Assembly: GCA_965200245.1 (NCBI GenBank)
Contig: CBDATS010000008.1
Coordinates: forward strand, 1 to 64,000
Length of the DNA stretch: 64,000 bases
Reading direction: 5' to 3'
Origin: a bacterium
GTDB lineage: Bacteria > UBA8248
The notes below the pieces were generated by a model. That model searched no databases and had not been told where the DNA came from. It saw only the letters and a program-made list of their open reading frames with translations. The translations under genes and the position numbers were made by a program. Positions 21,144 to 35,731 of this stretch are shown here, in pieces; the first letter of the stretch is position 1; each line of letters begins with the position of its first letter.

Positions 21144-21429
21144 TTGAGGAATCCTCCTGGATTAAAAATCAATCGGTATTTTGAACGAAGCGGCCAAAAT
21201 ATGTTAGCAAGTTGATGGCTAGAAATCTTCAAGCTCCGAGTATATGGCCTACTCCCGCTAATATATCCCATTTGATGAATGTTTCAAGGCCTGAAAATGT
21301 GGTTTCTTTGGCACCATTGTATATGGATATTGGAGCCTGGGTGAAATTTGAGGGTTTGGATGCCGTTTGACTTTGATTGTAAGGCTCCATATAATTAGGC
21401 TCCATAATATTTATTTTCGGGACAAAGCC

Positions 21430-21972
21430 ATGTTCTACATGAAAGAACTGCCGGACGAGGAAGATTTCCGTCCCCTTGTACCTGAGTATTCCTCTTTGGA
21501 TACATCCTCTGTCATGCTGTTTTATCTTTTTCTGCAAGTTGGCAGTGATATGCTAACCGCCTTCGAGTCGTATCTTGCCGAACACGGCGTATCGCAGGGC
21601 AAGTTCATCGTTTTGTTGTTGCTGCTGCGCTCACAGGTGAGAAACAACGGCTCGGGCCTCAGCCCGTCGGAATTGGCCAGACAGGCTGGCGTGACGCGTG
21701 CGACGATGACCGGCTTGATGAAGGGCCTGCAACGTGATGGACTCATCGAGCGTTTCAGTAACAACGATGACGGCAGGAAAGTCATCGTACGCCTGACTCC
21801 CAAGGGAAAAGGGAGCCTGAACGCCATTTTCCCCGACTATTACGCGCGCATATCGGAACTCATGAATGATTTGGAGGACGATGAGAGAGAGAAATTCTCC
21901 ATGCTGCTCCATAAGGTGAAGAAAAAAATGAATTCATCGAAACAGGTGCTGGCCACCGGCGCCCGTGGATGA
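21430..21972 (+). CDS. MarR-family transcriptional regulator
   Basis: Motifs SPSELA, VTRATMTGL and DGR..IVRLTPKG. Confidence 0.9.
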   Translation: MFYMKELPDEEDFRPLVPEYSSLDTSSVMLFYLFLQVGSDMLTAFESYLAEHGVSQGKFIVLLLLLRSQVRNNGSGLSPSELARQAGVTRATMTGLMKGLQRDGLIERFSNNDDGRKVIVRLTPKGKGSLNAIFPDYYARISELMNDLEDDEREKFSMLLHKVKKKMNSSKQVLATGARG

Positions 21973-22005
21973 AGCAAACCTCTTTCGAAGAAGGAGAACA
22001 AGGCA

Positions 22006-23250
22006 ATGGCGAAACCCAAAGTGATCATACAGTTGTACCCCATGCTGCCGACGGAAAGCCGGGAGGAACGGGAGCAGAAAAGACCCTTGGCCAGAGACAG
22101 GGATTTGTACCATCACGTGCTTCACGAATGGGTCGACATCGTGAAAGCCGCCGATGAGATGGGCGTTTGGGGCATCAGCACCATCGAGCATCATTTGCAT
22201 TCGGAGGGTTATGAGGTAGGCCCGAATCCGGGGGTTCTGAACTCGTGGTGGGCCGCGCACGTGAAAAACGCGAGAGTGGGCGCACTCGGGTATGTCATGG
22301 CTACTCAAGATCCGATTCGCGTGGCCGAGGAAACAGCCATTCTCGACCATATCACCAAGGGCAAGTTTTTCTGCGGCCTGGCGCGCGGGTATCAGTCGAG
22401 ATGGTCGAACGTCCTGGGGCAATTCAGTGATACCCGGGCTACTGTCTCCGACGCTCTCGGCGGGGCCGACGACGTGAAGAACCGGGACATCTTCGAGGAG
22501 CGGGTCGAGATGCTCCTGAAATTCTGGCAGGAAGATTCGGTGGAAGTAAGGGGAAATTACTACGAGATTCCCTACCCATACGAGGAAGGCATCAAATACC
22601 CGGCCTGGAAGAGTGCCCGGGATGCAGGCGCAATCGGCGAGATCGGCGACGACAATCGGGTGCGGAAAGTCAGTGTCGTGCCCAAACCCTATCAGGATCC
22701 TTATCCGCCCGTGTTTCAGGCTGTAAGCGCGAGCCCCGATTCCATAAAATTCGCCGCCAGGCACGGTTTCAGGCCGGTGTATTTCACAAAACTGGAAAAG
22801 ATGGAGGAATTCTCCCACCTCTACGTGGAGGAAGCCGCCAGGGCAGGCCACGACTTCACCCATGGCGAGCGGCAATGCGTATGTCGGTGGATTCACGTGA
22901 CGGACACCGAAGAGGAATATGACGAGAAGCTCAGGAAATACGATCAGGACATCTACCAGAACTTCTACGTACCCTTCTTCCCGCAGTTTCCCGACGATAC
23001 TGAGAGCATCGACTGGATTCAGAACATCAAGGAGAGCGGAATCTTCCTCGGTGGTCCGGTAGACAGGCTCAAGCGTGAGTGGGAAGAGACGTACGAGAAG
23101 GTGCCCGCTGAGTTCATCACTCTCATCTGGCACTACGCGCAGTGCCCGAAGGAGGAGGTCATCTACGAGTTGGAGACGTTCATGACGAAGATATGGCCCG
23201 ACCTTGAGTGTCCGGTGTCGAACGGCGTCACGGTAGGCGGCGTCGCCTGA
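22006..23250 (+). CDS. LLM-class (luciferase-like) flavin-dependent oxidoreductase
   Basis: Motifs EHH, DPIRVAEETAILDH, G.ARGY and PKPYQDPYPP. Confidence 0.9.
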   Translation: MAKPKVIIQLYPMLPTESREEREQKRPLARDRDLYHHVLHEWVDIVKAADEMGVWGISTIEHHLHSEGYEVGPNPGVLNSWWAAHVKNARVGALGYVMATQDPIRVAEETAILDHITKGKFFCGLARGYQSRWSNVLGQFSDTRATVSDALGGADDVKNRDIFEERVEMLLKFWQEDSVEVRGNYYEIPYPYEEGIKYPAWKSARDAGAIGEIGDDNRVRKVSVVPKPYQDPYPPVFQAVSASPDSIKFAARHGFRPVYFTKLEKMEEFSHLYVEEAARAGHDFTHGERQCVCRWIHVTDTEEEYDEKLRKYDQDIYQNFYVPFFPQFPDDTESIDWIQNIKESGIFLGGPVDRLKREWEETYEKVPAEFITLIWHYAQCPKEEVIYELETFMTKIWPDLECPVSNGVTVGGVA

Positions 23251-23325
23251 TTGTCCTATTGACGGGGAAGCCCCCCGCGCGCGGATGCGGGGGCTTGGCG
23301 GTACGTTCTTAGGTAGGAGGTGAGC

Positions 23326-24039
23326 ATGTATGAAATCATCGATCTGAGCCAGGAGATATACACCGGCGCACCTAGGTTTCCAGGGCATCCGGCCACCGAA
23401 ATCGAGTATGTTGCACGGCACGAAGACGCGGCCAACGCTCCGATTCGGCCCAAGGACATCACCTATGCGGCGATGATGCTCCACATGTGCGATCATGGTC
23501 CGACACATACCGATTCAGTCAGCCATATCGACGAGCGCGAAACGGCGCCCAATATCGATCAGGCCCCGATCGAGTGGTTCTTCACCCGTGCGATTGCGCT
23601 TGACTTCACAGGCAAGGTGGAGCCGATGGAAGAGATATCCTTGCATTTGCTTCAGGACGAGCTTTCAGCGGCGGAACTCACGCCCCCCAAAGACGGCACA
23701 TTTATTTTCACGGGCGGGCATTTCAAGCGCACCTATCCGACGGACGATTACCTCACCACGTACCCGGGTTTGGGCTATGAGGCCGCGAACTTCCTCTATC
23801 GCGATTGCGGCGTGGTGAACATCGGCCAGGATGCGCCCAGCATCGACGCCGGCGTGAACACCATCAAGCTGACGTTTCCCTGTCACGTGCTATGCCGGGA
23901 ACTCCAGCGCCACAACACGGAAAATCTCGCGAACATCGAGGCGGTAGCTGGCAAGGAATTTCTCTACCTGGGGCTTCCGCTCAGGATTCGCGCGGGTACG
24001 GGCTCTCCTATACGAGCCGTCGCCGTCATGAACCTTTGA
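23326..24039 (+). CDS. Cyclase/kynurenine formamidase-family metal hydrolase
   Basis: Motifs IIDLS, H.PTH.D, YPG, D.PSID, ENL and GTGSPIRA. Confidence 0.88.
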   Translation: MYEIIDLSQEIYTGAPRFPGHPATEIEYVARHEDAANAPIRPKDITYAAMMLHMCDHGPTHTDSVSHIDERETAPNIDQAPIEWFFTRAIALDFTGKVEPMEEISLHLLQDELSAAELTPPKDGTFIFTGGHFKRTYPTDDYLTTYPGLGYEAANFLYRDCGVVNIGQDAPSIDAGVNTIKLTFPCHVLCRELQRHNTENLANIEAVAGKEFLYLGLPLRIRAGTGSPIRAVAVMNL

Positions 24040-24172: not shown

Positions 24173-24523
24173 ATGTCGAGGACAGTGGAGTGGTACTATC
24201 ATCGATCCGGTTGAAAGACCTGCGCCAAAACGCAAGCGTTTCTTGCGGAAAATGGTATCGAGGTCTTCGAGCAGGCCAACTCGAAAAAAGACGTGGTGGA
24301 TGAGGGCAACGTCGATTCCGTCCTGAATGGTGTGTCGGACGTGTATTCGACCAGGGCGCGGAAAGTGATTCACCTAAACATCAAGCAGGGAAAGCCCGCA
24401 CGCGAAGACGTGCTGGCGCTTTTGATGGGCCGGTCGGGTACGCTCAGGGCGCCGGTCATCAAACACGGGAACACCCTCATCGTCGGTTTCGATGAGGATA
24501 CCTACGCCCGGGTATTGAAGTAG
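24173..24523 (+). CDS. ArsC/Spx-like thioredoxin-fold selenoprotein (UxxC)
   Basis: AAGGAG RBS. Reads MSRTVEWYYHRSG-TGA(24212)-KTC, then stays in frame to G.LRAP...IVGF. Extends the 76-aa track ORF to 116 aa. Confidence 0.88.
24231..24247 (+). promoter_or_regulatory. Candidate bacterial SECIS
   Basis: CGCAAG-CGTTT-CTTGCG; the loop starts 22 nt after the UGA and has G at its second position. Confidence 0.7.
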
Positions 24524-24544: not shown

Positions 24545-25999
24545 TTAGAGGGCCAACTGGCCCTGCGTGGGTTCCGCTCAGCAGAACCACGATTCGCTCA
24601 GGCGGGGCGGGCGGATTCGGTCGGGTGCGAAGACAGCCCCTGGCCGTGCCTGAGCGGGACGCTCAAGAACGTCCGCCGCCAGTTCGCGAATTCTTGCAAA
24701 GGTCTCAGCGGCGTCTTCATGGCGTGCCGCCGCATCTTCTGCGAGGAGGAGCGCCTCCTCGTGCAGTTTGTCCATTCTTTCATCGGGGTGTTTCCAGCGG
24801 TAGATGAAATTCTCCGCGTCGAGTTCGGTAAGGTATCTCTCCATATCCGGGGAGCGGAGCAGGCAGGAACCGGGCGGAACGAGCAGGCGGATGGCCATCT
24901 GGATGGGGTCGACCTCGTCGATCAGGGCGAATTCTTCGATGAAATCCAGCAGGTCGAAATAATCCTGTGCACTTGTCCATGGTGTGAATGCGACGAGCGA
25001 CGGCCGGATGGAGACACGTGCCTCTCTGGCGGCTCTCACCACCCGGAAAACACCTTCCCTGTCGTGTCCCTTGTCCAGATGATGGAGCACAATGTCACTC
25101 AGTGATTCGACCGCCGTGACGAAGAACGCGCATCCGTTTTCCCTGAACTCAAGCAGGAGATTCTCGTTTTTGAGGAGGTGTTCCACCTTGGCCGTGAAGT
25201 CGAACGTAAGCGAGGGAAACCTCTCGTGCACCGCGCGGGCGACCCGTAACGCATGAGCGGGACCGTTCAGAAAATCCGGATCCGCAAAGGTGATGTGACG
25301 CGCCCCGTGCGCCGCCAAGTCTTCGATGTCCTCCAAAACCTTGTCCTGTGGCACAATGAAGAAACGGCCCTCGTAAACCGGCGGAATGGGACAGTGAAGG
25401 CACAGGTGCTTGCAGCCTCGGCTTGCCTCGACGGCTCCGGCGGGGTAGCGTTGCCCATTCTTGACGAGATGGGCGTATGCCTGTAGCGCGGGCAATTCCT
25501 CTCGTGCTGGTTTTAGCAGGGGTATTTTTTTGAGAAACGGACCGGATGTGTGCGCTCTCGTCGCCGCGCCGTGAACCTTTATGTTCCCCGAGTTTTGGGA
25601 GAACTCTTGAACAAGGTTCACGAGCGGCAATTCGAACTCGCCGCCGATAACCGAATCCCCGCCGTTTCCAAGAAGATAGTCTTTGTTGAGCAGGCCGTAG
25701 AGGCCATAGAAGCAGATATGACATTCAGGGTTCGTTTCTCGTACTTTCGCCGCCACCTCCACGCCGAGTCTGAGTGCCGTGTGCATCGGCACACTGATGC
25801 CGACGAATTTCGCATTTTCTATTTTTTCCGGCGAGAATTCCTCTGCCGCCACGTCCATCGCCCAGGGCTGAAATCCCGCTTCGCGCAAAAACGCCAGGGG
25901 TGAGGCGACGGCCAAGGGCTGATGCCCCAACTCATAACAGGAGATGAGAACGACCGCTCCGGGTGAATGCCACTCAGAGGCTTTATCCGCTCGATTCAC
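24545..25999 (-). CDS. CUAEP-tail radical SAM selenoprotein
   Basis: B12-binding-like N-terminus (ISCYELGHQP) and RGCKHLCLHC (CxxxCxxC). The apparent stop TGA (24580-24578) reads on as WFC-U-AEPTQGQLAL-TAA. Confidence 0.9.
24549..24564 (-). promoter_or_regulatory. Candidate bacterial SECIS
   Basis: AGGGCC-AGTT-GGCCCT; the loop starts 19 nt after the UGA and has G at its second position. Confidence 0.7.
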
Positions 26000-26021
26000 G
26001 TCGAATCTCTTCGTTCATCAT

Positions 26022-26055
26022 AAAAAAGCCCCGGGCGTGTGAGGCCCAGGGCTTT
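26022..26055 (-). terminator. Intrinsic terminator after iscA/erpA
   Basis: AAAGCCCTGGGC-loop-GCCCGGGGCTTTTTT on the minus strand. Confidence 0.75.
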
Positions 26056-26070
26056 AAGGTTATTGTTCCA

Positions 26071-26454
26071 TCACGTAGTGAACGATTTGCCGCAACCACA
26101 CATGCTCATGGCGTTGGGGTTATTGATCTTGAAGCCCGAGCCTTGGAGACTGTCGACGAAATCGATTTCCGTTCCGGCGATGACGGGATAACTCTGCGGG
26201 TCCACGTACACGTCGAATCCATCGGCGGAAAACACCTTATCTTCAGGGTTAGCGGATTCCTCGAAATAAAGGCCGTAGTTGTAACCCGAGCACCCGCCTG
26301 CCGTGACGGCGAGCCTGAGCCCGTGGCCACTCTTGCCTTCGGCCTTGAGAATCTCCACCACCTTCTTGTTGGCGTTCGGCGTAACCACAATGCCTTCAAG
26401 AGCTTGGGGTTTCTTTTGGGATTGATCGAACAGCGTGACCGTTCCATCCGACAT
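26071..26454 (-). CDS. A-type Fe-S carrier (IscA/ErpA/HesB)
   Basis: Motifs GGCSG.NY and NPNA..CGCGKSF. AAGGAG RBS before ATG 26454. Confidence 0.92.
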   Translation of the reverse strand: MSDGTVTLFDQSQKKPQALEGIVVTPNANKKVVEILKAEGKSGHGLRLAVTAGGCSGYNYGLYFEESANPEDKVFSADGFDVYVDPQSYPVIAGTEIDFVDSLQGSGFKINNPNAMSMCGCGKSFTT

Positions 26455-26678
26455 AGGTTGTATCTCCTTGACTTTTATGACTTTATGAGGGTTGTTGAAA
26501 TTTACCGTGATGACGACACCTCCAGTATTACACCTTTTCGCCTTTTTTGCAAAGATCGATCCCCATATACCCTTGAAATTCCACCATCTTTTCGGACGTA
26601 ATTCCTTATTTACTCCCGAACGGACGGGAATCTCGCGAGCGTATCCTGAATAATTCTTCATTTTATTATTCAAAAAAG

Positions 26679-26809: not shown

Positions 26810-29431
26810 ATGAATTTCGATCAATTCACTCATAAGACGCAAGAAGCACTTCAGCATGCCCAGGAGTCGGCTCAGGCGAGGGGCCACCAGGGCGTTACGC
26901 CCGCGCACGTACTCCTTGCACTTCTGGCTCAGCCAGAAGGCGTGCTTGCGCACCTCATCGAAAAGGCGGGGCTGAAAATCCACGTGTTAAGCCGCGAACT
27001 CGAAGCTTCTCTGGAAAAGCTCCCGAAAGTCGCCGGAAACGGCGCACCCCAATACGTCACACGGGAACTGGCGGCGCTCTTCCAGGCGGCGCAAAAAGAA
27101 GCGAAGATCATGGCGGATGAATACGTGAGCGGCGAGCATCTGCTGTTGGCCGCGCTTGAAAACGGAGGCGCAGAGGTGAGAAACATCCTGCGCGCGACTG
27201 GTCTCGACCGCGAGGTTGTCCTCTCGTCTTTGAAGGACATCCGCGGGAGCCAGCGAATCACCGATCAGAATGCGGAGAGCCGCTACCAGGCGCTTGAGCG
27301 TTTCGCAATCGATCTCACCGGGAAGGCACGCTCCGGCAAACTCGACCCCGTCGTGGGCCGGGAGGACGAGATCAGGCGCGTCATGCAGGTGCTCTCGCGT
27401 CGTACGAAGAACAACCCGGTGCTCATTGGCGACCCCGGCGTGGGCAAGACCGCGATAGTCGAAGGCCTCGCCCAGCGCATCGTGAATGGCGACGTGCCGG
27501 AAGGCCTCAAACGCAAGCATCTGCTCAGTCTCGACATCGGTTCGCTCATCGCGGGTTCGAAGTTTCGGGGTGAGTTCGAGGACAGGCTCAAGGCCGTGCT
27601 GAAGGAAGTGAGCGAATCGGACGGCGAAATCGTCTTGTTCATCGACGAACTTCACACCGTCGTGGGCGCAGGAGCGGCGGAAGGGGCGGTGGATGCCTCG
27701 AACCTCTTGAAGCCTGCGCTCGCCCGTGGCGAACTCCACTGCGTGGGTGCTACTACGCTTGATGAATACCGGAAACACATCGAGAAAGATGCCGCGCTCG
27801 AGCGTCGCTTTCAGCCCGTGATGGTCGATGAGCCGAGCCTGGAGGACGCCATTTCCATCCTGCGCGGCCTCAAGGAGAAATACGAGATCCACCATGGCGT
27901 CCGCATCCTGGACAATGCCTTGGTCGCTGCCGTCGTGCTCTCGCATCGTTACATCAGTGACCGCCATCTGCCGGACAAGGCCATTGACCTGATAGACGAG
28001 GCCGCGAGCGGCCTGCGTCTCGAACTGGACAGCCTGCCTCAGGAGATCGACCGGCAGGAGCGCGAACTTCTCAGGCTGCGGATCGAGGAACGCGCCCTGG
28101 AAGGGGAGAAGGACGATGATGGCCGGGAGCGTCTCGCGCAGATACGCGAGCGAATCTCCTCTCTCGATGAACAGAGCAGGGAACAGCGAAACCAGTGGGC
28201 GAATGAGAAAAGCGTCATCTCCCGTGTGCGCGAGCTCAAGGAGCGCGTCGAGGAAATGAAGGCCGGGGCCCAGCGTGCCGAGCGCGAGGGGGATTTGAAC
28301 CGGGCGGCGGAACTTCGCTACGGTGAGATTATCGCGGCCGAGAAGGAAATAAGCGATGCGGAAGAAGAACTCGAAAAAAGAGCCAACGGTCGCATGCTCA
28401 AGGAGGAAATCACCGAGGACGATGTGGCTGCCGTCGTGAGCCGCTGGACGGGTATCAACGTGAGCAGGCTCCTGGAGAAGGAGCGGGAGAAGCTCCTGCG
28501 CATGGAGGAGAACATTCACAGGCGCGTCGTGGGCCAGGACAGGGCGGTGGAGGCCCTCGCAGAAGCCGTGCGCCGCGCACGGGCGGGTATCATGGACGAA
28601 AACCGGCCCATCGGCTCGTTCATATTCCTGGGTCCCACCGGCGTCGGCAAGACGGAACTCGCCCGCGCGCTTGCGGAGTTCCTTTTCGACGACGAGTCTG
28701 CGATGGCCCGCGTGGACATGAGCGAGTACATGGAAAAACACGCCGTGGCCAGGCTCATCGGCGCTCCGCCGGGCTATGTCGGCTACGAGGAGGGGGGACA
28801 ACTCACAGAAGCCGTCCGGAGAAAGCCCTATTCGGTCGTCCTTCTGGATGAGATCGAGAAGGCGCACCCCGAGACTTTCAACCTGCTACTGCAACTGCTC
28901 GACGACGGAAGGCTCACGGACGGGCATGGTCGCACGGTCGATTTCCGAAATGCCGTCATCATCATGACGAGCAACGTAGGTACGGACGAACTTTCGCGAA
29001 ACGATATCGGCTTTGTCGGAGGCGGGATACAGGAAATTGACCAGCCCGAAGGATTGCTCGCGGAACTTCGCAGGGTGTTCCGGCCCGAGTTCCTCAACCG
29101 CGTCGATGAGGCCATCGTTTTCCGCCCGCTCACGAAAGAACAAATCGGCGAAATCGTGAATATCCGGTTGCGTGAACTCGAGAAACGCTTGGAAGCCCAG
29201 AAAATCAGGCTGCGTCTCACGGGTGCTGCCAGGAACTTCCTGGCCGAGCGCGGATACGATCCGGTTTTTGGTGCGCGGCCCCTTAAGAGAGCGATACAGA
29301 CGTATGTTATGAACCCGCTCAGCAAGAAGCTCCTCGCCGGCGAATTTGAAGCCGGTGAAACTGTAGAGGTCGACCATGCGGCGGGGATGGATGCGCTCAG
29401 CTTCGCCGTACTCATGGAGGCGGAGGTATAA
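26810..29431 (+). CDS. clpB: Disaggregase ClpB
   Basis: Two AAA modules ([16 protein letters not shown]), a middle coiled coil and GARPL. Confidence 0.97.
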
Positions 29432-29560
29432 GGCAGGCACAAGCGAAAATACGGATTTTTCAAGAAGGGCATCTTTGACGCAGGATGGATTGACAAAAAG
29501 CAAGTTTGTTCACTTTACCTGAATGAGCATGAAATTTCGATTGGATAAGGAGAAAGGTTG

Positions 29561-31477
29561 ATGTCGAAGGTAATCGGAATTGATTTGGGCACCACCAATT
29601 CGGTCGTCTCCGTCATGGAGGGTGGGCAGCCTACGGTCATCGCCAACCAGGAGGGCAACCGCACGACGCCCAGCGTCGTGGCGTTTACAGACGACGGCGA
29701 GAAGCTTGTCGGCCTCGTGGCCAAGCGCCAGGCAGTGACCAACCCGACCAGGACCATTTATTCTGCAAAACGCTTCATGGGCAGGCGTTTCGACGAAGTG
29801 CCCGAAGAAGTCACCATCGTGCCGTATGAGGTCGTGAAGTCGGACAGCGGCGACGCGCGTATCAAGATCGACGGCAAGGAGCACGCTCCTCCCGAGATAT
29901 CGGCGAGCGTGCTGCAAAAGCTCAAGCAGGCCGCCGAGGACTATTTGGGTGAGAAGGTGACGGAAGCTGTCATCACGGTTCCTGCATATTTCAACGACAG
30001 CCAGCGCCAGGCGACAAAGGACGCCGGAAAAATCGCCGGGTTGAACGTCCAGCGTATCATAAACGAACCCACGGCCGCTGCACTCGCCTACGGGCTCGAC
30101 AAGAAGGCAGATCAGACCATCGCCGTGTATGATTTCGGCGGCGGTACATTCGACATCTCCATCCTCGAGGTGGGGGACAACGTGGTCGAGGTGAAGGCCA
30201 CGAACGGCGATACGCACCTGGGTGGCGATAACATCGACCACCGAATCATCGAGTGGATGGCCGAGGAGTTCAAAAGGGATCAGGGAATTGACATCTCGGG
30301 CGACCCCATGGCGCTTCAGCGCCTGCGCGAGGAATCGGAAAAAGCGAAGATCGAGCTTTCGAGTTCAATGGAAACGACTATCAACCTGCCGTTCATTACG
30401 GCAGACGCCTCGGGTCCCAAGCACCTGAACTTGAAGCTCACACGCGCGAAGCTAGAACAGTTGACGGGTGATCTGGTCGAGAAAACGCTGGTTCCCTGCC
30501 GTCGCGCGCTCGATGACGCGAAGATCCAGCCCGGTGACATCGACGAGGTAGTGCTCGTGGGCGGTTCGACGCGGATGCCGCTGGTGCAGCAGACGGTGGA
30601 GAAATTTTTCGGAAAAGAGCCTCACAAAGGCGTGAATCCCGACGAGGTCGTGGCGGTTGGCGCGGGCGTGCAGGGTGGCGTGCTTGTCGGAGACGTCAAG
30701 GACGTTCTATTGCTTGACGTTACCCCGCTTTCTCTGGGTATCGAGACCTTGGGCGGCGTGTTCACCAAGCTCATTGAGCGCAACACGACGATTCCGGTCA
30801 AGAAGAGTGAAACCTTCTCAACCGCTGCGGACAACCAGCCCTCCGTCGAGGTGCACGTCTTGCAAGGCGAGCGCGAGATGGCTGCGGGCAACCGTTCGCT
30901 GGGCAAGTTCCACCTGGTCGGCATCCCCGCCGCGCCGCGCGGTGTTCCCCAGATCGAGGTGGCGTTCGACATCGACGCCAATGGTATCGTGAACGTCTCT
31001 GCCAAGGACTTGGGTACCGGTAAGGAGCAGGCGATTACCATCACGAGTTCGAGCGGCCTCTCCGAGGAAGAGATCAACAACATGGTAGCCGACGCGGACG
31101 AGCATGCAGAAGAGGACAAGAAGAGACGTGAGGCCGTCGAGGCGAGAAACATGGCCGACAGCATGGCGTACAGCACGGAGAAGATGCTCAATGAAAATGA
31201 GGAGAAAGTTTCGGCCGAAGACAAGAAAGAGATAGAAGACGCCATCGCGGCGCTTCGGACGGTCCTTGAAAAGGAAGACGCGACGGTGGAGGAGATAAAG
31301 GAAGCGCAGGCGAAACTTGAGGCGGCCTCGCACAAGCTTGCCCAGGCGATGTACGAGCAGGCGAGCCAGGCCGGCGGTGACGACGGCGTTCCCGAGACCG
31401 GCAGTGGCTCGAACGGTGCGGCCTCGGGCGATGTGGTGGATGCGGAGTTCGAGGAAGTGGACAAGGACAAATCCTAG
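29561..31477 (+). CDS. dnaK: Hsp70 chaperone DnaK
   Basis: Motifs [23 protein letters not shown] and DAEFEEV. Confidence 0.98.
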
Positions 31478-31502
31478 GCATCTTGCCCGAATGAGGGGTG
31501 GT

Positions 31503-32456
31503 ATGGCGAAGCATGATTATTACGAAGTGCTGGGGATCGACCGGAGCGTTTCGGATTCGGAGCTGAAGCGCGTTTTCAAGAAACTGGCGCGCAGGTATCA
31601 TCCCGACGTCAATCCGGGGGATGCGAAGGCTGAGGAGCGCTTCAAGGAAATCAGTGAGGCTTACGCCGTCCTATCCGACCCTGAGAAGCGCAGGAAGTAC
31701 GACACCATGGGGCATGCCGCCTTCGGAAGGGGCAGCCCTTGGGGAGATGGCACCCCGCCCGGTATGGAAGACATTCTGCGCGAATTCGGCTTGGGCGGTA
31801 TTTTCGGCGGGATTTTCGGTGGCACGCGCGGTGGTGCGGCACGAAGAGGCTTTCATGCGGGTACCCAGGTCCCCCAGCGGGGCCAGGACGTGAACTACTC
31901 GATGGAGATTGGTTTCGATGATTCCCTGAAGGGGCTCAACACCACTATCACCGTGCCCAAGACCACACAGAAGAACGGGAAAATCCAGCACACAACGGAG
32001 CGTATTCAGGTGAAGATACCGCCCGGCGTCTCGAACGGCTCGTGCATACGCTTGGCGGGCAAGGGTGAAGCCTCCCTGAGCGGTGGGTCGCAAGGAGATC
32101 TCTTTATCGTCACAAAGGTGCGGGAGCATCCTTTCTTCGAGCGCAAGGGGGATAATCTGTGTCTCGATCTTCCCGTCAGCCTCGGCGAGGTGCTGCTGGG
32201 TGCGCGGGTGGAGATTAATACATTCGAGGGGGTGACGAAGATGACGATTCCTCCCTCGACCCAGAACGGCCAGGTGTTCCGGCTTTCGGGAAAGGGTGCG
32301 CCGAAACTCAAGGACTCTGGAAAGGGCGATTTGTTTGTGACCATCAAGGTTATTCTGCCGGAGAAGATGGACGAGGAGAGCAGGGAGATCGTCCGCGAAC
32401 TGGAGCAGCGGAACCCCACGTCTCCTCGGGCGAACATGACGGGCGTGAGCATGTAG
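31503..32456 (+). CDS. Class B J-domain protein (CbpA-like, no zinc finger)
   Basis: HPD J-domain, G/F region and C-terminal domain; no CxxCxGxG repeats. Confidence 0.9.
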   Translation: MAKHDYYEVLGIDRSVSDSELKRVFKKLARRYHPDVNPGDAKAEERFKEISEAYAVLSDPEKRRKYDTMGHAAFGRGSPWGDGTPPGMEDILREFGLGGIFGGIFGGTRGGAARRGFHAGTQVPQRGQDVNYSMEIGFDDSLKGLNTTITVPKTTQKNGKIQHTTERIQVKIPPGVSNGSCIRLAGKGEASLSGGSQGDLFIVTKVREHPFFERKGDNLCLDLPVSLGEVLLGARVEINTFEGVTKMTIPPSTQNGQVFRLSGKGAPKLKDSGKGDLFVTIKVILPEKMDEESREIVRELEQRNPTSPRANMTGVSM

Positions 32457-32521
32457 TTTGTAGACGATTTCGGGTAAAAGCGGGAGCGGATGATGGATGA
32501 CCATATGTGCGGGAGAGGACC

Positions 32522-32929
32522 ATGGCGCGTAGAGGCGTAAGAAACGGGCGCTACACCATCAGCGCGGTGGCCGAGATGTTCGAGATTCACCAGCAGACGC
32601 TCAGGTTGTATGAGCGCCAGGGTCTCATCGAGCCGAACCGCAGCAAGGGTGGCACGCGCTATTACTCCGAAGAAGATATCGATCAACTGGAAATCATCAT
32701 GGCGCTCACGCGGGACATGGGCGTGAACCTTGCAGGTGTGCAGGTCATCATCGAGCTTCGCGAGAAGCTCATGAGCGCACTTGAGCGCCTCGGCGAACTT
32801 GAGGAGTTGATAGAAAGCCAGGCGTTCGAGGACTTGCGCGAGCGGATGAGCAGCGCAACGCCCGAGATGCAGGCCATGATACCTTCGGTTGCCGCCAAGC
32901 TCGTGCGCGTCAGGAGGAGACGGTTGTGA
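32522..32929 (+). CDS. hspR: MerR-family heat-shock repressor HspR
   Basis: Motifs [26 protein letters not shown] and GVNLAGV; follows the cbpA-like gene. Confidence 0.88.
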
Positions 32930-33783
32930 GCACGAATTCCATCAAATCCTTTTTATTGCTCGCTTTGTTGACGAGCCTGATTCTGCTGATTGGCAATCTT
33001 CTCGGCGGGGCAACCGGGCTGGTCATCGCCCTGGTGCTGGCGGTGGGCATCAACGGCTACAGCTATTGGTATTCGGACAAGATCGTTCTCGCCAGCACGG
33101 GCGCGAGCGAGGTATTGCCCGAACATGCGCCCGAATTGTACGGTATGGTGGCGGATCTGGCGCGTCGCGTGAACCTGCCCATGCCGCGCGTTTACGTGAT
33201 TCCCGAAGATGTGCCGAACGCCTTCGCCACGGGCAGAAATCCCGAGAACGCCGCTGTCGCCTTCACCGAGGGGATTTTGCACGAACTCAACCGCGAGGAA
33301 CTCGAAGGCGTGGCCGCGCACGAACTCGCCCACATCAAAAACCGGGATATTCTTCTGAGCACCATCGCTGCCTCGCTGGCGGGTGCCATCATGTATATTG
33401 CGCAAATGGTGCAGTTCGCCGCGTTCTTCGGTGCCTACGGCAGGGACGATGACGAGGAAGGCGGTGGTGGTTTGTTGGGCATCATCGTCGCCGCGATAGT
33501 CGCTCCCATTGCAGCCACGCTGCTCCAGATGGCGGTGAGCCGCTCGCGCGAATATCTCGCCGACGCCACGGGCGCACAAATCGCGGGCACGCCCATCGGA
33601 CTGGCGAACGCCCTGCACCGACTTGACGAGGCTGCACATCGCGAGGAACTCCACTGTGCGAGCGAGGCGACTGCCCACATGTATATTGTCAACCCGCTCG
33701 CTGGAGGTGGCTTGGCGAATCTGTTCAGCACGCACCCGCCGATGGATGAGAGGATTCGGCGGTTGATGGAGATGAGATACTAG
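32926..33783 (+). CDS. htpX: Zinc metalloprotease HtpX
   Basis: Motifs [21 protein letters not shown] and FSTHP. Confidence 0.95.
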
Positions 33784-33804
33784 GTTTCGGGAGGAAGTCG
33801 TTTC

Positions 33805-34503
33805 ATGAAAGCGAAAGAAGCAGGTGTCGGGACGGATAACGGCGACGGCATGAAGGCCGAAGCTGCGAATGTAGAGCCGAAGGAGGAAGTCCGTTTGGAA
33901 GAGGAAGCCAGGGAGAAGCCGCGGATCGTCGACAGGCGGCGCGTCCGAGAGGACGGCGAAGTGAGAGAGGAGAACGCAGAGGAGGCCGAAGAGACCCCGC
34001 GCGTGCCAGCCTACGTCGAGCAACTCCAGGCGAAGGTCGCCGCTGCCGAGGAGAAGCTCAAGCAGCACATCGAGAAAATCGACAAGGAGACGGCCGATTT
34101 CAGGGCGCGCCAGGAACGCGAGATGGTGCGCAGGACCCAAGAGGTAAAAAAACAGGCCGTGTCAGGTTTTTTGGGCATCGCCGACGATCTGGCGCGCGCC
34201 ACGGCAGCCGCGGACGGAGGCGTATCCAGGGGGGAAGCGGACAAGACCCTCGAAACACTCGTACAGGGGGTCCGGATGATTCAGGGCCGATTCTTTCAGG
34301 AATTATCGAATCTGGGAGTGGAGCCTCTTGCGGCGATGGGTGCCGAATTCAACCCCGAGGAGCACGAGGCAGTGCGCATGGTCGAAGTGAGCGACAAGGC
34401 ACAGGGCGGCTTGGTGGTGGAGGAATTGGCTTGCGGCTACAAGCTGGGTGATGTGGTATTGAGACCCGCGCGCGTCTCGGTGGGCAAGTACACAGGCCCG
34501 TAA
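33805..34503 (+). CDS. grpE: Nucleotide exchange factor GrpE
   Basis: Motifs FNPEEHEAV and GYKL...VLRPARV.V. Confidence 0.92.
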   Translation: MKAKEAGVGTDNGDGMKAEAANVEPKEEVRLEEEAREKPRIVDRRRVREDGEVREENAEEAEETPRVPAYVEQLQAKVAAAEEKLKQHIEKIDKETADFRARQEREMVRRTQEVKKQAVSGFLGIADDLARATAAADGGVSRGEADKTLETLVQGVRMIQGRFFQELSNLGVEPLAAMGAEFNPEEHEAVRMVEVSDKAQGGLVVEELACGYKLGDVVLRPARVSVGKYTGP

Positions 34504-34582
34504 CCCGGACCGCATGCCCTTGAACCGGATTCGCGCTCATAGTATCTTCGCGTGTTTTCGATTTTCGGGGTGAAGGGAAGAC

Positions 34583-35731
34583 ATGAGCAAGCGTGATTAC
34601 TACGAAGTGCTGGGCTTGAGCCGCAACGCGAGCGACGCCGAGATCAAGAAGGCGTATCGTACCCTCGCGATGAAGTATCACCCGGATCGGAATCCGGGCG
34701 ATGCGAAGGCGGAGGAGTTGTTCAAGGAAGCCTCCGAGGCCTACCAGGTGCTGAGCAAGCCCGAGAAGAGAAACACGTACGATCGCTTCGGCCACGACGG
34801 GCTTCGTGGGATGGGGCATCAGGGATTTTCGAGTTTCGACGACATCTTCTCCTCGTTCGGGGATATTTTCGGGGATTTGTTCGGCGGCGTGTTCGCTGGC
34901 TCGCGCGCGCGCCGGGACGGGCCGCGCAAGGGCCGAGACCTCGCCTACCAGATGGAGATGACATTCGAAGAAGCGGCAACGGGTGTCGGACGCGAGATCG
35001 AGTTCGAACGCCCTGTGGAATGTGTCTATTGTGGTGGCAGCGGGGCCAAGTCGCCCGATGCGATTCGCGAGTGCCCATCCTGCGGCGGCAGTGGCCAGAT
35101 GTCCTACCGCCAGGGTTTCATGACTTTTTCCACCGCCTGTTCAAACTGCGACGGCGCGGGCATTCAAATCACCGAGCACTGCGAGGAATGCAGTGGGGTC
35201 GGGCGCCGCATGGAGCAGAGGAAGGTGAAAGTGAAGATACCCCCCGGCGTCGACGAGGGTGCCAGACTGCGCCTTCGCGAAGAAGGAGAAGGGGGTGCCA
35301 AGGGCGGACCGGCAGGCGATTTGTTCGTCGTCGTCTCCTTGCTCGTGCACGAGGAATTCGAACGCAACGGTGCGGATGTGGCGAGCCAGGTGTACGTTAG
35401 CTTCTCGCAGGCGACCTTGGGGGACACAGTGAGGGTACGGACGCTCTACGGGGAATCCGAACTTGAAATTCCCAGGGGGGTGCAGTCCTCGGATGTGCTC
35501 AGCCTAAGGGGCGAGGGATTCGAACGCCTCGGCAGGAAGGGGCGCGGCGATCATATGTTCCTGGTTCAGGTCCGGACCCCGACGAAATTGACGCCGGACG
35601 AGGAGAGGCTGTTTGGCGAGTTGTCGGAGATCGAACGTGAAAAGATGGAGAGAAACGGAGTTGGGGGAACTGGGGAAAACGGCACAGGGAAAAAAGGCAT
35701 TCTCGATAAGCTAAGTTCCCTTTGGGGATGA
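34583..35731 (+). CDS. dnaJ: Chaperone DnaJ (class A)
   Basis: HPD plus four CxxCxGxG repeats. Confidence 0.96.

Follow-up and report, generated by a model that had tools for sequence, protein, structure and literature searches.

The subject of this study is a gene on the minus strand (positions 24545..25999) of a 64,000-nucleotide stretch of bacterial DNA (GTDB lineage Bacteria; UBA8248; assembly GCA_965200245.1, contig CBDATS010000008.1, positions 1 to 64,000), which we refer to as the window. Its coding sequence (CDS) specifies a radical S-adenosylmethionine (SAM) protein of 484 residues with selenocysteine (Sec) at position 474, and it almost certainly represents a genuine selenoprotein of the CUAEP/CCAEP-tail family in which UGA-474 is decoded with the assistance of a downstream hairpin. 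Judged by its sequence, the protein belongs to a family that is already catalogued and is typical of it: it shares the length class, the tail motif and the Cx3Cx2C motif of the proteins described by the NCBIfam model NF040546, and no feature sets it apart from them. What the present analysis adds is the split gene arrangement found in this lineage, a near-universal distribution in the host phylum, a residue-level contrast with the arsinothricin enzyme ArsL, the occurrence of ligases in ArsL gene clusters, tests based on SelD and on arsenic genes, and the finding that a bacterium available in culture, Thermomicrobium roseum DSM 5159, carries a family member. The conserved partners of the family suggest an amino-acid product and not arsenic chemistry.

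The reading frame starts at a GTG codon (position 25999) and runs through ...SESWFC to an in-frame TGA (24578..24580, minus strand), which corresponds to U474 and immediately follows C473; ten further codons specifying AEPTQGQLAL (24548..24577, minus strand) precede the TAA stop codon (24545-24547). A hairpin of the selenocysteine insertion sequence (SECIS) type with a 6-bp stem and a 4-nt AGUU loop (24549..24564, minus strand) is situated within the QGQLAL codons. An initial annotation of this DNA had given the gene coordinates, the tail peptide and a 6-bp hairpin 13 nt past the TGA, all of which proved exact when we re-read the minus strand. It had also placed the protein in the CUAEP/CCAEP family, an assignment borne out by a search with the NCBIfam profile hidden Markov models, in which NF040546 (CUAEP/CCAEP-tail radical SAM (seleno)protein) matched residues 16-483 over profile positions 1-467 of 468 with 660.3 bits (cut-off 500). 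The C-terminal motif C-[U/C]-A-E-P is present as W-F-C-U-A-E-P-T (residues 471-478), the Pfam domain PF04055 (Radical_SAM) covers residues 191-330 (48 bits; threshold 29.5), and the cluster motif C196-x3-C200-x2-C203 (25391..25414, minus strand) is invariant in all 134 rows of our alignment. The family comprises more than 8000 protein clusters (E <= 1e-20), a number that is a lower bound. Passages of a preprint call it uncharacterised and state that CU motifs are otherwise found in mercury-related proteins (Haft, 2022); this agrees with the initial annotation, which had described the substrate as unknown, and our full-text literature search for CUAEP/CCAEP retrieved no relevant paper besides this preprint.

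The case for Sec was built on 29 related loci, 16 from Nitrospinota and 13 from Blastocatellia and other Acidobacteriota, Nitrospirota, Pirellulaceae and Bacteroidota. The equivalent of codon 474 is TGA in 23 of these loci and a Cys codon (TGC or TGT) in the other six, and past it the peptide reads on as A-E-P-T throughout, save where a contig end cuts it (L037). The four residues that follow (A475, E476, P477, T478) are invariant in 17/17 aligned sequences from five phylum-level groups; hence, homologs ending at the Cys with no conservation of AEP, the outcome that the initial annotation had named as adverse, were not what we found. Among the best 120 database homologs, 93 stop exactly at ...WFC, 25 read on as CCAEP and 2 are partial. 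Most public copies have thus been cut at the TGA by gene callers, a point that concerns genome annotation at large.

One of the related loci (L037) ends with its contig after WFC-U-A, so that the complete Sec forms number 23 (the window and 22 loci). In every one of them the hairpin occupies the same register, with free energies (dG) of -11.4 to -15.1 kcal/mol, while it is lost from the six Cys forms (mean dG -2.45); in a Cys form that has close Sec relatives (L036), the stem has decayed. Compensatory, double-sided stem changes replace a C-G by a U-A pair in two loci (L033, L041); in four Blastocatellia loci an A-U pair stands for G-C. The letters A-G-U-U of the loop are invariant, the Blastocatellia hairpins differing by one base in the loop; MAFFT failed to put this difference inside the loop, and the covarying pairs were counted by script. 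Taken alone, the hairpin is unremarkable: the 60 nt past the TGA yield a z-score of -0.47 against dinucleotide shuffles, and 13 out of 1000 mononucleotide shuffles of the 29-nt hairpin core fold equally well. Since single-sequence folding is not significant, the Sec call rests on the comparison across loci. The hairpin ends 2 nt before the stop codon, and its loop G-U is positioned 24-25 nt from the U of the UGA, which we take to be about the distance of the SelB-binding G-U in the fdhF element of E. coli.

The genome possesses the machinery for Sec insertion. The selA (572.7 bits) and selB (391.9 bits) genes lie side by side; selD (338.6 bits; contig C8:72779-73741, minus strand), about 9 kb past the end of the window, contains an in-frame TGA of its own and encodes a Sec-containing SelD, and a tRNA-SeC(tca) gene is found on the same contig as the radical SAM gene (C8, 357340-357436). 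The genome profile scan detected a single copy of the radical SAM gene, with one internal TGA (653.8 bits). That the TGA is instead a true stop, with the protein ending at C473 and the downstream conservation being a matter of RNA or chance, would conform to the end points of the 93 homologs and of the T. roseum RefSeq CDS; yet it is scarcely credible in view of the Cys codons that occupy this site with the same AEPT continuation (6/29 loci, 25/120 proteins), the NF040546 match through the tail, the covarying hairpin and the full Sec machinery. In place of Cys, Sec would provide a better nucleophile or ligand in the C-terminal arm; it is apparently an upgrade and not a requirement, because Cys forms occur in genomes without SelD.

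An AlphaFold2 model built on the 134-row alignment reached a predicted local distance difference test (pLDDT) value of 92.7 and a predicted template modelling score (pTM) of 0.91. When it was compared with known structures by Foldseek, the best match was the radical SAM 1,2-diol dehydratase AprD4 (E 5e-19; template modelling score, TM, 0.63), and further matches (OxsB, TsrM, MgmA, MiaB, CysS, TokK, RimO) were likewise radical SAM enzymes whose N-terminal domain is Rossmann-like. AprD4, OxsB, TsrM, MgmA, MiaB and RimO have the same overall fold (E 5e-19 to 4e-10; TM 0.50-0.66), but they share only 12-18% sequence identity with the window protein and none of them carries a Cys-Sec tail. The modelled fold resembles B12-bound enzymes (OxsB, TsrM) as well as AprD4; the B12-binding domain PF02310 scores 19.7 bits in the window protein, under the threshold of 32.1, and many homologs have a precomputed PF02310 match. 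No close solved relative emerged from a sequence search of the PDB, the best match being 9ccb_A (1.9e-10).

Outside the radical SAM motif, four residues stand out by their conservation: C21 (in S-C-Y-E-L-G; codon 25936..25938, minus strand), H73 (P-M-H-T-A; 25781-25783), C96 (H-I-C-F; 25712-25714) and C290 (G-C-x-F; 25130-25132) are invariant or nearly so in the family, occurring in 17/17 aligned sequences and in at least 90% of the 134 rows. Secondary structure places C21 after strand 1, H73 after strand 3 and C96 after strand 4 of the sheet in the N-terminal Rossmann-like domain, an edge that is presumably the seat of B12 or of an auxiliary cluster in the fold relatives. MiaB and RimO, in which three conserved Cys residues of the N-terminal domain ligate a second [4Fe-4S] cluster, are similar in fold (TM ~0.5); in the window protein C21 and C96 are situated in the N-terminal domain and C290 in the barrel.

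The closest characterised relative is ArsL. Its model, NF040542, ranked second in the NCBIfam search (308.4 bits; cut-off 450) and matched over profile positions 2-414 of 423, stopping before the tail. We aligned five ArsL-family genes from annotated plasmids with six CUAEP members and found about 60 columns, many of them polar and distributed over both domains, to be invariant across the two families at 29-36% identity. The kinship to ArsL proposed by the initial annotation is thereby upheld, and the CUAEP/CCAEP family is the sister of ArsL. Both share the two-domain architecture, a C-terminal vicinal Cys pair (the CC of ArsL aligns with C473-U474) and, as described below, an ATP-grasp ligase that is often encoded in the same cluster. 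They differ in the tail itself, since R-C-C-L-K-C of ArsL has three Cys residues and C-U-A-E-P-T only two thiol/selenol groups, the third ArsL Cys having no counterpart. Furthermore, some 55 additional residues, forming a helix and a linker, carry the CUAEP tail, and C21, H73, C96 and C290 are replaced or variable in the five ArsL-family sequences. The arsM, arsR, aquaporin, arsN and efflux genes that accompany ArsL are absent near the CUAEP genes, where iron-sulfur (Fe-S) carriers are found instead.

According to passages of a first preprint on ArsL, SAM is split by the enzyme into methylthioadenosine and an aminocarboxypropyl (ACP) species, and the RCCLKC tail of ArsL binds As(III); truncation of the tail abolishes product formation but not SAM cleavage. 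Passages of a second preprint report six conserved Cys residues, of which three serve the cluster and the three others belong to the tail, with all tail Cys binding arsenic, and consider that arsenic may attack an ACP group bound to the cluster in organometallic form. The link between the ArsL tail and As(III) drawn in the initial annotation is therefore in line with these passages of both preprints.

A recurrent genomic partner of the CUAEP family is an ATP-grasp ligase with an L-amino-acid-ligase C-terminal domain (LAL_C2), which adjoins the radical SAM gene in 10 of the 13 non-Nitrospinota loci; the exceptions are L033, L037 (at the contig end) and L040, whose contig ends 450 bp past the gene. 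Compared with this usual context, the gene of the window is separated from its ligase partner and placed between genes for an IscA-type carrier and an ArsC-fold selenoprotein. The ligase ortholog of this genome (50% identical) resides on contig C4, convergent with an Nfu gene; there, a gene for an oxidoreductase of the short-chain dehydrogenase/reductase family (L048:7046-8275, plus strand) ends 5 bp before the ligase match on the same strand and may share its pathway.

Within 51 genomes of the host phylum, the radical SAM protein scored over the cut-off in 48 and was detected as fragments in two more, and every complete copy has one TGA; the one genome with none (G008) is 99% complete. The ligase was found in 46 of the 51 genomes; it was not found in G008, which is thus without both genes, or in G009, G011 (67% complete), G020 (79% complete) and G040. 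In 5/7 genomes of one family of the phylum (f4), the radical SAM gene is directly adjoined by a second ligase copy, and the f4 genomes G001-G004 and G007 contain two ligase paralogs, of which the one immediately after the radical SAM gene scores 482-531 bits against the ligase profile and the distant one 609-647 bits. An even sample of 151 Acidobacteriota genomes comprised 24 with both genes, 1 with the radical SAM gene only, 5 with the ligase only (G077 among them) and 121 with neither, counts that overstate the significance of the co-occurrence since relatives are not independent; in 12 of the 24 genomes with both, the genes lie within about 1 kb of each other. Co-occurrence of the radical SAM gene and the ligase gene is strong and spans phyla.

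The partner-ligase profile gave a full-length match (E 3.9e-64) to PDB 3vot, the Bacillus licheniformis L-amino-acid ligase BL00235, which is only distantly related and no ortholog. The products of BL00235, as given in Table 2 of a review (PMC6920838), are Met-Gly and Met-Met, which means that its N-terminal substrate is an amino acid of the ACP-X type; methionine is such an amino acid, like the product of ArsL. ATP-grasp ligases of the same class are encoded in four of the five ArsL-family contexts that we examined (B. cereus, Priestia, Alicyclobacillus and Pantoea plasmids), and none is present in the fifth, the arsQ-arsL-arsM cluster of Pseudomonas amygdali. These ligases show about 25% identity with the CUAEP partner and again have 3vot as their best PDB match; LAL_C2 was detected in the B. 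cereus and Alicyclobacillus proteins and not in the Priestia and Pantoea copies. Their presence suggests that some arsinothricin-type clusters might make a ligated (dipeptide) product. A literature search combining arsinothricin and ATP-grasp returned only an unrelated paper, and the pairing of ArsL with a ligase was not found in print. The ArsL-family plasmid clusters (L053, L055-L057) also hold a gene for a major facilitator superfamily (MFS) transporter or an aquaporin, as well as genes for ArsM and a GTP-binding protein.

A CUAEP gene is also present in a cultured bacterium, T. roseum DSM 5159, on the megaplasmid NC_011961.1 (L052:6980-8416). The encoded protein is 50.5% identical to that of the window, and the TGA is present; the RefSeq CDS ends at it, and the frame continues with A-E-P-L-E. 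Neighbouring genes specify a divergently transcribed pyridoxal phosphate-dependent aminotransferase and an MFS transporter. A search confined to the megaplasmid found no ligase gene.

Genes for Fe-S or iron carriers recur next to those of the CUAEP system. Four Blastocatellia loci contain an additional Nfu carrier gene, in L040 the radical SAM gene follows a suf operon closed by an IscA-like gene, a gene for the iron-trafficking protein YggX precedes the radical SAM-ligase pair in two of the three annotated f4 loci (L058-L060), and of the Nitrospirota loci two have a ferredoxin gene upstream and two a DUF169 gene. Together with the family-specific Cys and His residues, these carriers suggest a second metal site, which perhaps supplies cluster-derived sulfur.

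Considering the residues that are invariant in both families, the homologous arm and the shared class of ligase, an ArsL-type ACP transfer to a non-arsenic atom held on the C-U arm is the best-supported model for the function of the enzyme; we advance it tentatively, as a reading by analogy that may well prove wrong. SAM would be bound at the [4Fe-4S] cluster of C196, C200 and C203 and would be cleaved in the unusual direction, as it is by ArsL. Arsenic is probably not the acceptor; an atom that the cell contains at all times is likelier. Our best guess is sulfur, which would be handled via the extra Cys/His site (C21, H73, C96, C290) that ArsL does not have; such a site would explain the dedicated Fe-S and iron carriers encoded beside these genes. 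A methionine-like amino acid would result, and the BL00235-type ligase, encoded beside Nfu in this genome, might join it to another amino acid. In a more far-reaching form, which we regard as rather unlikely, the CUAEP/CCAEP proteins would constitute a second, much wider branch of ArsL-type chemistry that forms a carbon-chalcogen (likely C-S) bond by moving the ACP group onto an atom taken from a sacrificial auxiliary Fe-S site at C21/H73/C96/C290 or carried by the Cys-Sec arm; Nfu, IscA or YggX would rebuild the site, and the ligase would convert the product into a dipeptide with a housekeeping role in Nitrospinota and many soil bacteria.

Several points weigh against this model of ACP transfer. 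The direction of SAM cleavage is not readable from the sequence, the window protein scores under the ArsL cut-off, and its tail differs in offering two instead of three thiol/selenol groups; from W471 onward, this tail is modelled with moderate confidence (pLDDT ~62). In the window genome, the two genes are located on different contigs, and only the type of ligase paralog that is non-adjacent in f4 has been kept. The radical SAM gene occurs without the ligase gene in one genome of each of two samples (G053, G087), and five Acidobacteriota genomes possess the ligase gene without the radical SAM gene. Fe-S carriers encoded by a radical SAM gene in aerobes may merely reflect the fragility of the cluster. 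Finally, a homocysteine-like product made from SAM brings no obvious metabolic gain.

A possible, if doubtful, alternative is canonical 5'-deoxyadenosyl chemistry on a small substrate, with the C-U arm acting as a redox or hydrogen-atom-donor shuttle that is re-reduced by a thioredoxin-fold protein, here the U-x-x-C redoxin encoded next to the gene. C-terminal redox tails are known from thioredoxin reductase, the R1 subunit of ribonucleotide reductase and MerA. The canonical Cx3Cx2C motif, the radical SAM barrel and the structural match to AprD4 fit such an activity, as does the exchange between Sec and Cys, which is typical of redox-active sites, and the gene for the U-x-x-C redoxin selenoprotein is convergent with the radical SAM gene in 16/16 Nitrospinota loci. 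The redoxin neighbour is found, however, in none of the 13 loci outside the phylum, and ArsL itself combines a canonical motif with non-canonical chemistry, as the passages of the ArsL preprints describe it. The many polar residues that are invariant across the CUAEP and ArsL proteins also suggest a shared chemistry. The redoxin is a possible reductant of the C-U arm, in the capacity of a local neighbour only.

It is improbable that the system modifies a macromolecule, with the radical SAM enzyme making or installing an unusual amino acid that the ATP-grasp enzyme would ligate to a protein or cofactor. EpmB and EpmA acting on EF-P and RimK acting on S6 provide analogies, and the combination of a radical SAM enzyme with a ligase follows the logic of EF-P beta-lysylation; the near-core distribution in the phylum and the single copy per genome would also suit a housekeeping modification. 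Against this, the ligase resembles over its full length dipeptide ligases that use free amino acids (BL00235, 3.9e-64; BacD) and has the LAL_C2 domain, and no conserved target gene accompanies the radical SAM-ligase pair in the annotated loci.

The initial annotation had viewed the C-U pair as a metalloid-binding arm. The notion of an acceptor-holding arm remains a fair analogy, given the alignment of C473-U474 with the vicinal CC of ArsL, but metalloid binding is not supported by the data. The clusters of ArsL are rich in arsenic genes (ArsM, ArsR, aquaporin, ArsN1, ACR3, ArsC, ArsD). We used 16 arsenic-island proteins as tblastn queries against 409 kb of CUAEP-system DNA in 32 stretches (the 29 related loci, positions 14-36 kb of the window, and the ligase locus of this genome and the T. 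roseum locus); none of the 16 found a match, and the same queries detected their counterparts in two ArsL loci that served as a positive control. Binding of As(III), methylarsenite or Sb(III) by the C-U pair, followed by formation of a carbon-metalloid bond as by ArsL, appears very improbable, even though the two families are sisters with alignable tails and CU motifs occur elsewhere in mercury-handling proteins, according to passages of the preprint cited above (Haft, 2022). The third tail Cys of ArsL is missing, and all three bind arsenic in ArsL (as stated in passages of the second ArsL preprint); the genes next to the CUAEP genes encode Fe-S carriers and not transport or resistance functions; and presence of the gene in nearly all genomes of the phylum is more in keeping with a housekeeping substrate than with a toxic metalloid. 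Taken together, arsenic is an unlikely substrate. The neighbouring gene with an ArsC-type product was considered as a link to arsenic and rejected, since it encodes a redoxin of the Spx/ArsC fold with a U-x-x-C motif and the two true ArsC queries in the tblastn search yielded no match.

A selenium metabolite as the substrate came into consideration because SelD is encoded near the module in Blastocatellia: it adjoins the module in L034, and neighbours in L038 and L039 carry the same AIRS domains. This reading was rejected, as no SelD was found in four of the five genomes with a Cys-form enzyme, among them G207, whose record is labelled a chromosome; the pathway has thus no need for selenophosphate, and selenium as the acceptor is disfavoured. 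The presence of SelD beside the Blastocatellia module most simply reflects the Sec trait.

The interest in this large family lies in the fact that its only characterised relative, ArsL, carries out one of the rarest radical SAM reactions. Knowing what the Cys-Sec arm holds would show whether biosynthesis makes general use of non-canonical SAM cleavage, and it could uncover a novel amino acid or dipeptide made by bacteria that abound in the sea and in soil. The search is narrowed in that arsenic is unlikely, selenophosphate is not required, the ligase partner is shared with ArsL clusters and T. roseum is available in culture.

Directly upstream of the radical SAM gene and on the same strand, the window encodes a 127-residue Fe-S carrier of the IscA/ErpA type (26071..26454, minus strand; TIGR00049, 122 bits), which is syntenic in 16/16 Nitrospinota loci. 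A terminator-like hairpin of 12 pairs followed by a T run (26025..26055, minus strand) lies between the IscA stop codon and the radical SAM start codon, leaving about 25 nt to the latter with no promoter-like site in between. On the other side, and convergent with the radical SAM gene, is the gene for the 116-residue redoxin selenoprotein of the ArsC/Spx fold (24173..24523, plus strand), whose motif G-U-K-T-C contains Sec encoded by a TGA at 24212-24214. Model NF041106 matches it with 119.1 bits (cut-off 85), and the entire profile (1-107 of 107) is covered only when the TGA is read through; a caller of open reading frames would show just the last 76 codons. The hairpin after this TGA has a z-score of -2.69. 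As the redoxin gene is a neighbour in every Nitrospinota locus and in none of the 13 others, the block of IscA, radical SAM and redoxin genes reflects close kinship and not function.

Beside the redoxin gene, the window contains genes for a MarR regulator, a luciferase-like monooxygenase and a cyclase/arylformamidase-like protein (21367-24039), an arrangement kept in 15/16 Nitrospinota loci. The IscA gene is followed by a heat-shock block specifying ClpB, DnaK, a DnaJ-like protein, HtpX, GrpE and DnaJ (26810-35731), and DnaJ and DnaK are also encoded near the radical SAM gene in two Blastocatellia loci (L034, L038). Two metatranscriptome runs contain contigs that match the window at 100% identity and span most of the locus, including the tail with its TGA and the convergent gene, and one of them (X6) bridges the junction between the IscA and radical SAM genes together with the terminator-like hairpin (25641-26500); in both instances carry-over of DNA into the RNA libraries is possible. 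Stretches without such cover, which carry no weight as evidence, are ~24753-24991 for X6 and ~25009-25190 and ~25918-26064 for X7. The DNA datasets that contain the locus are labelled sponge metagenome.

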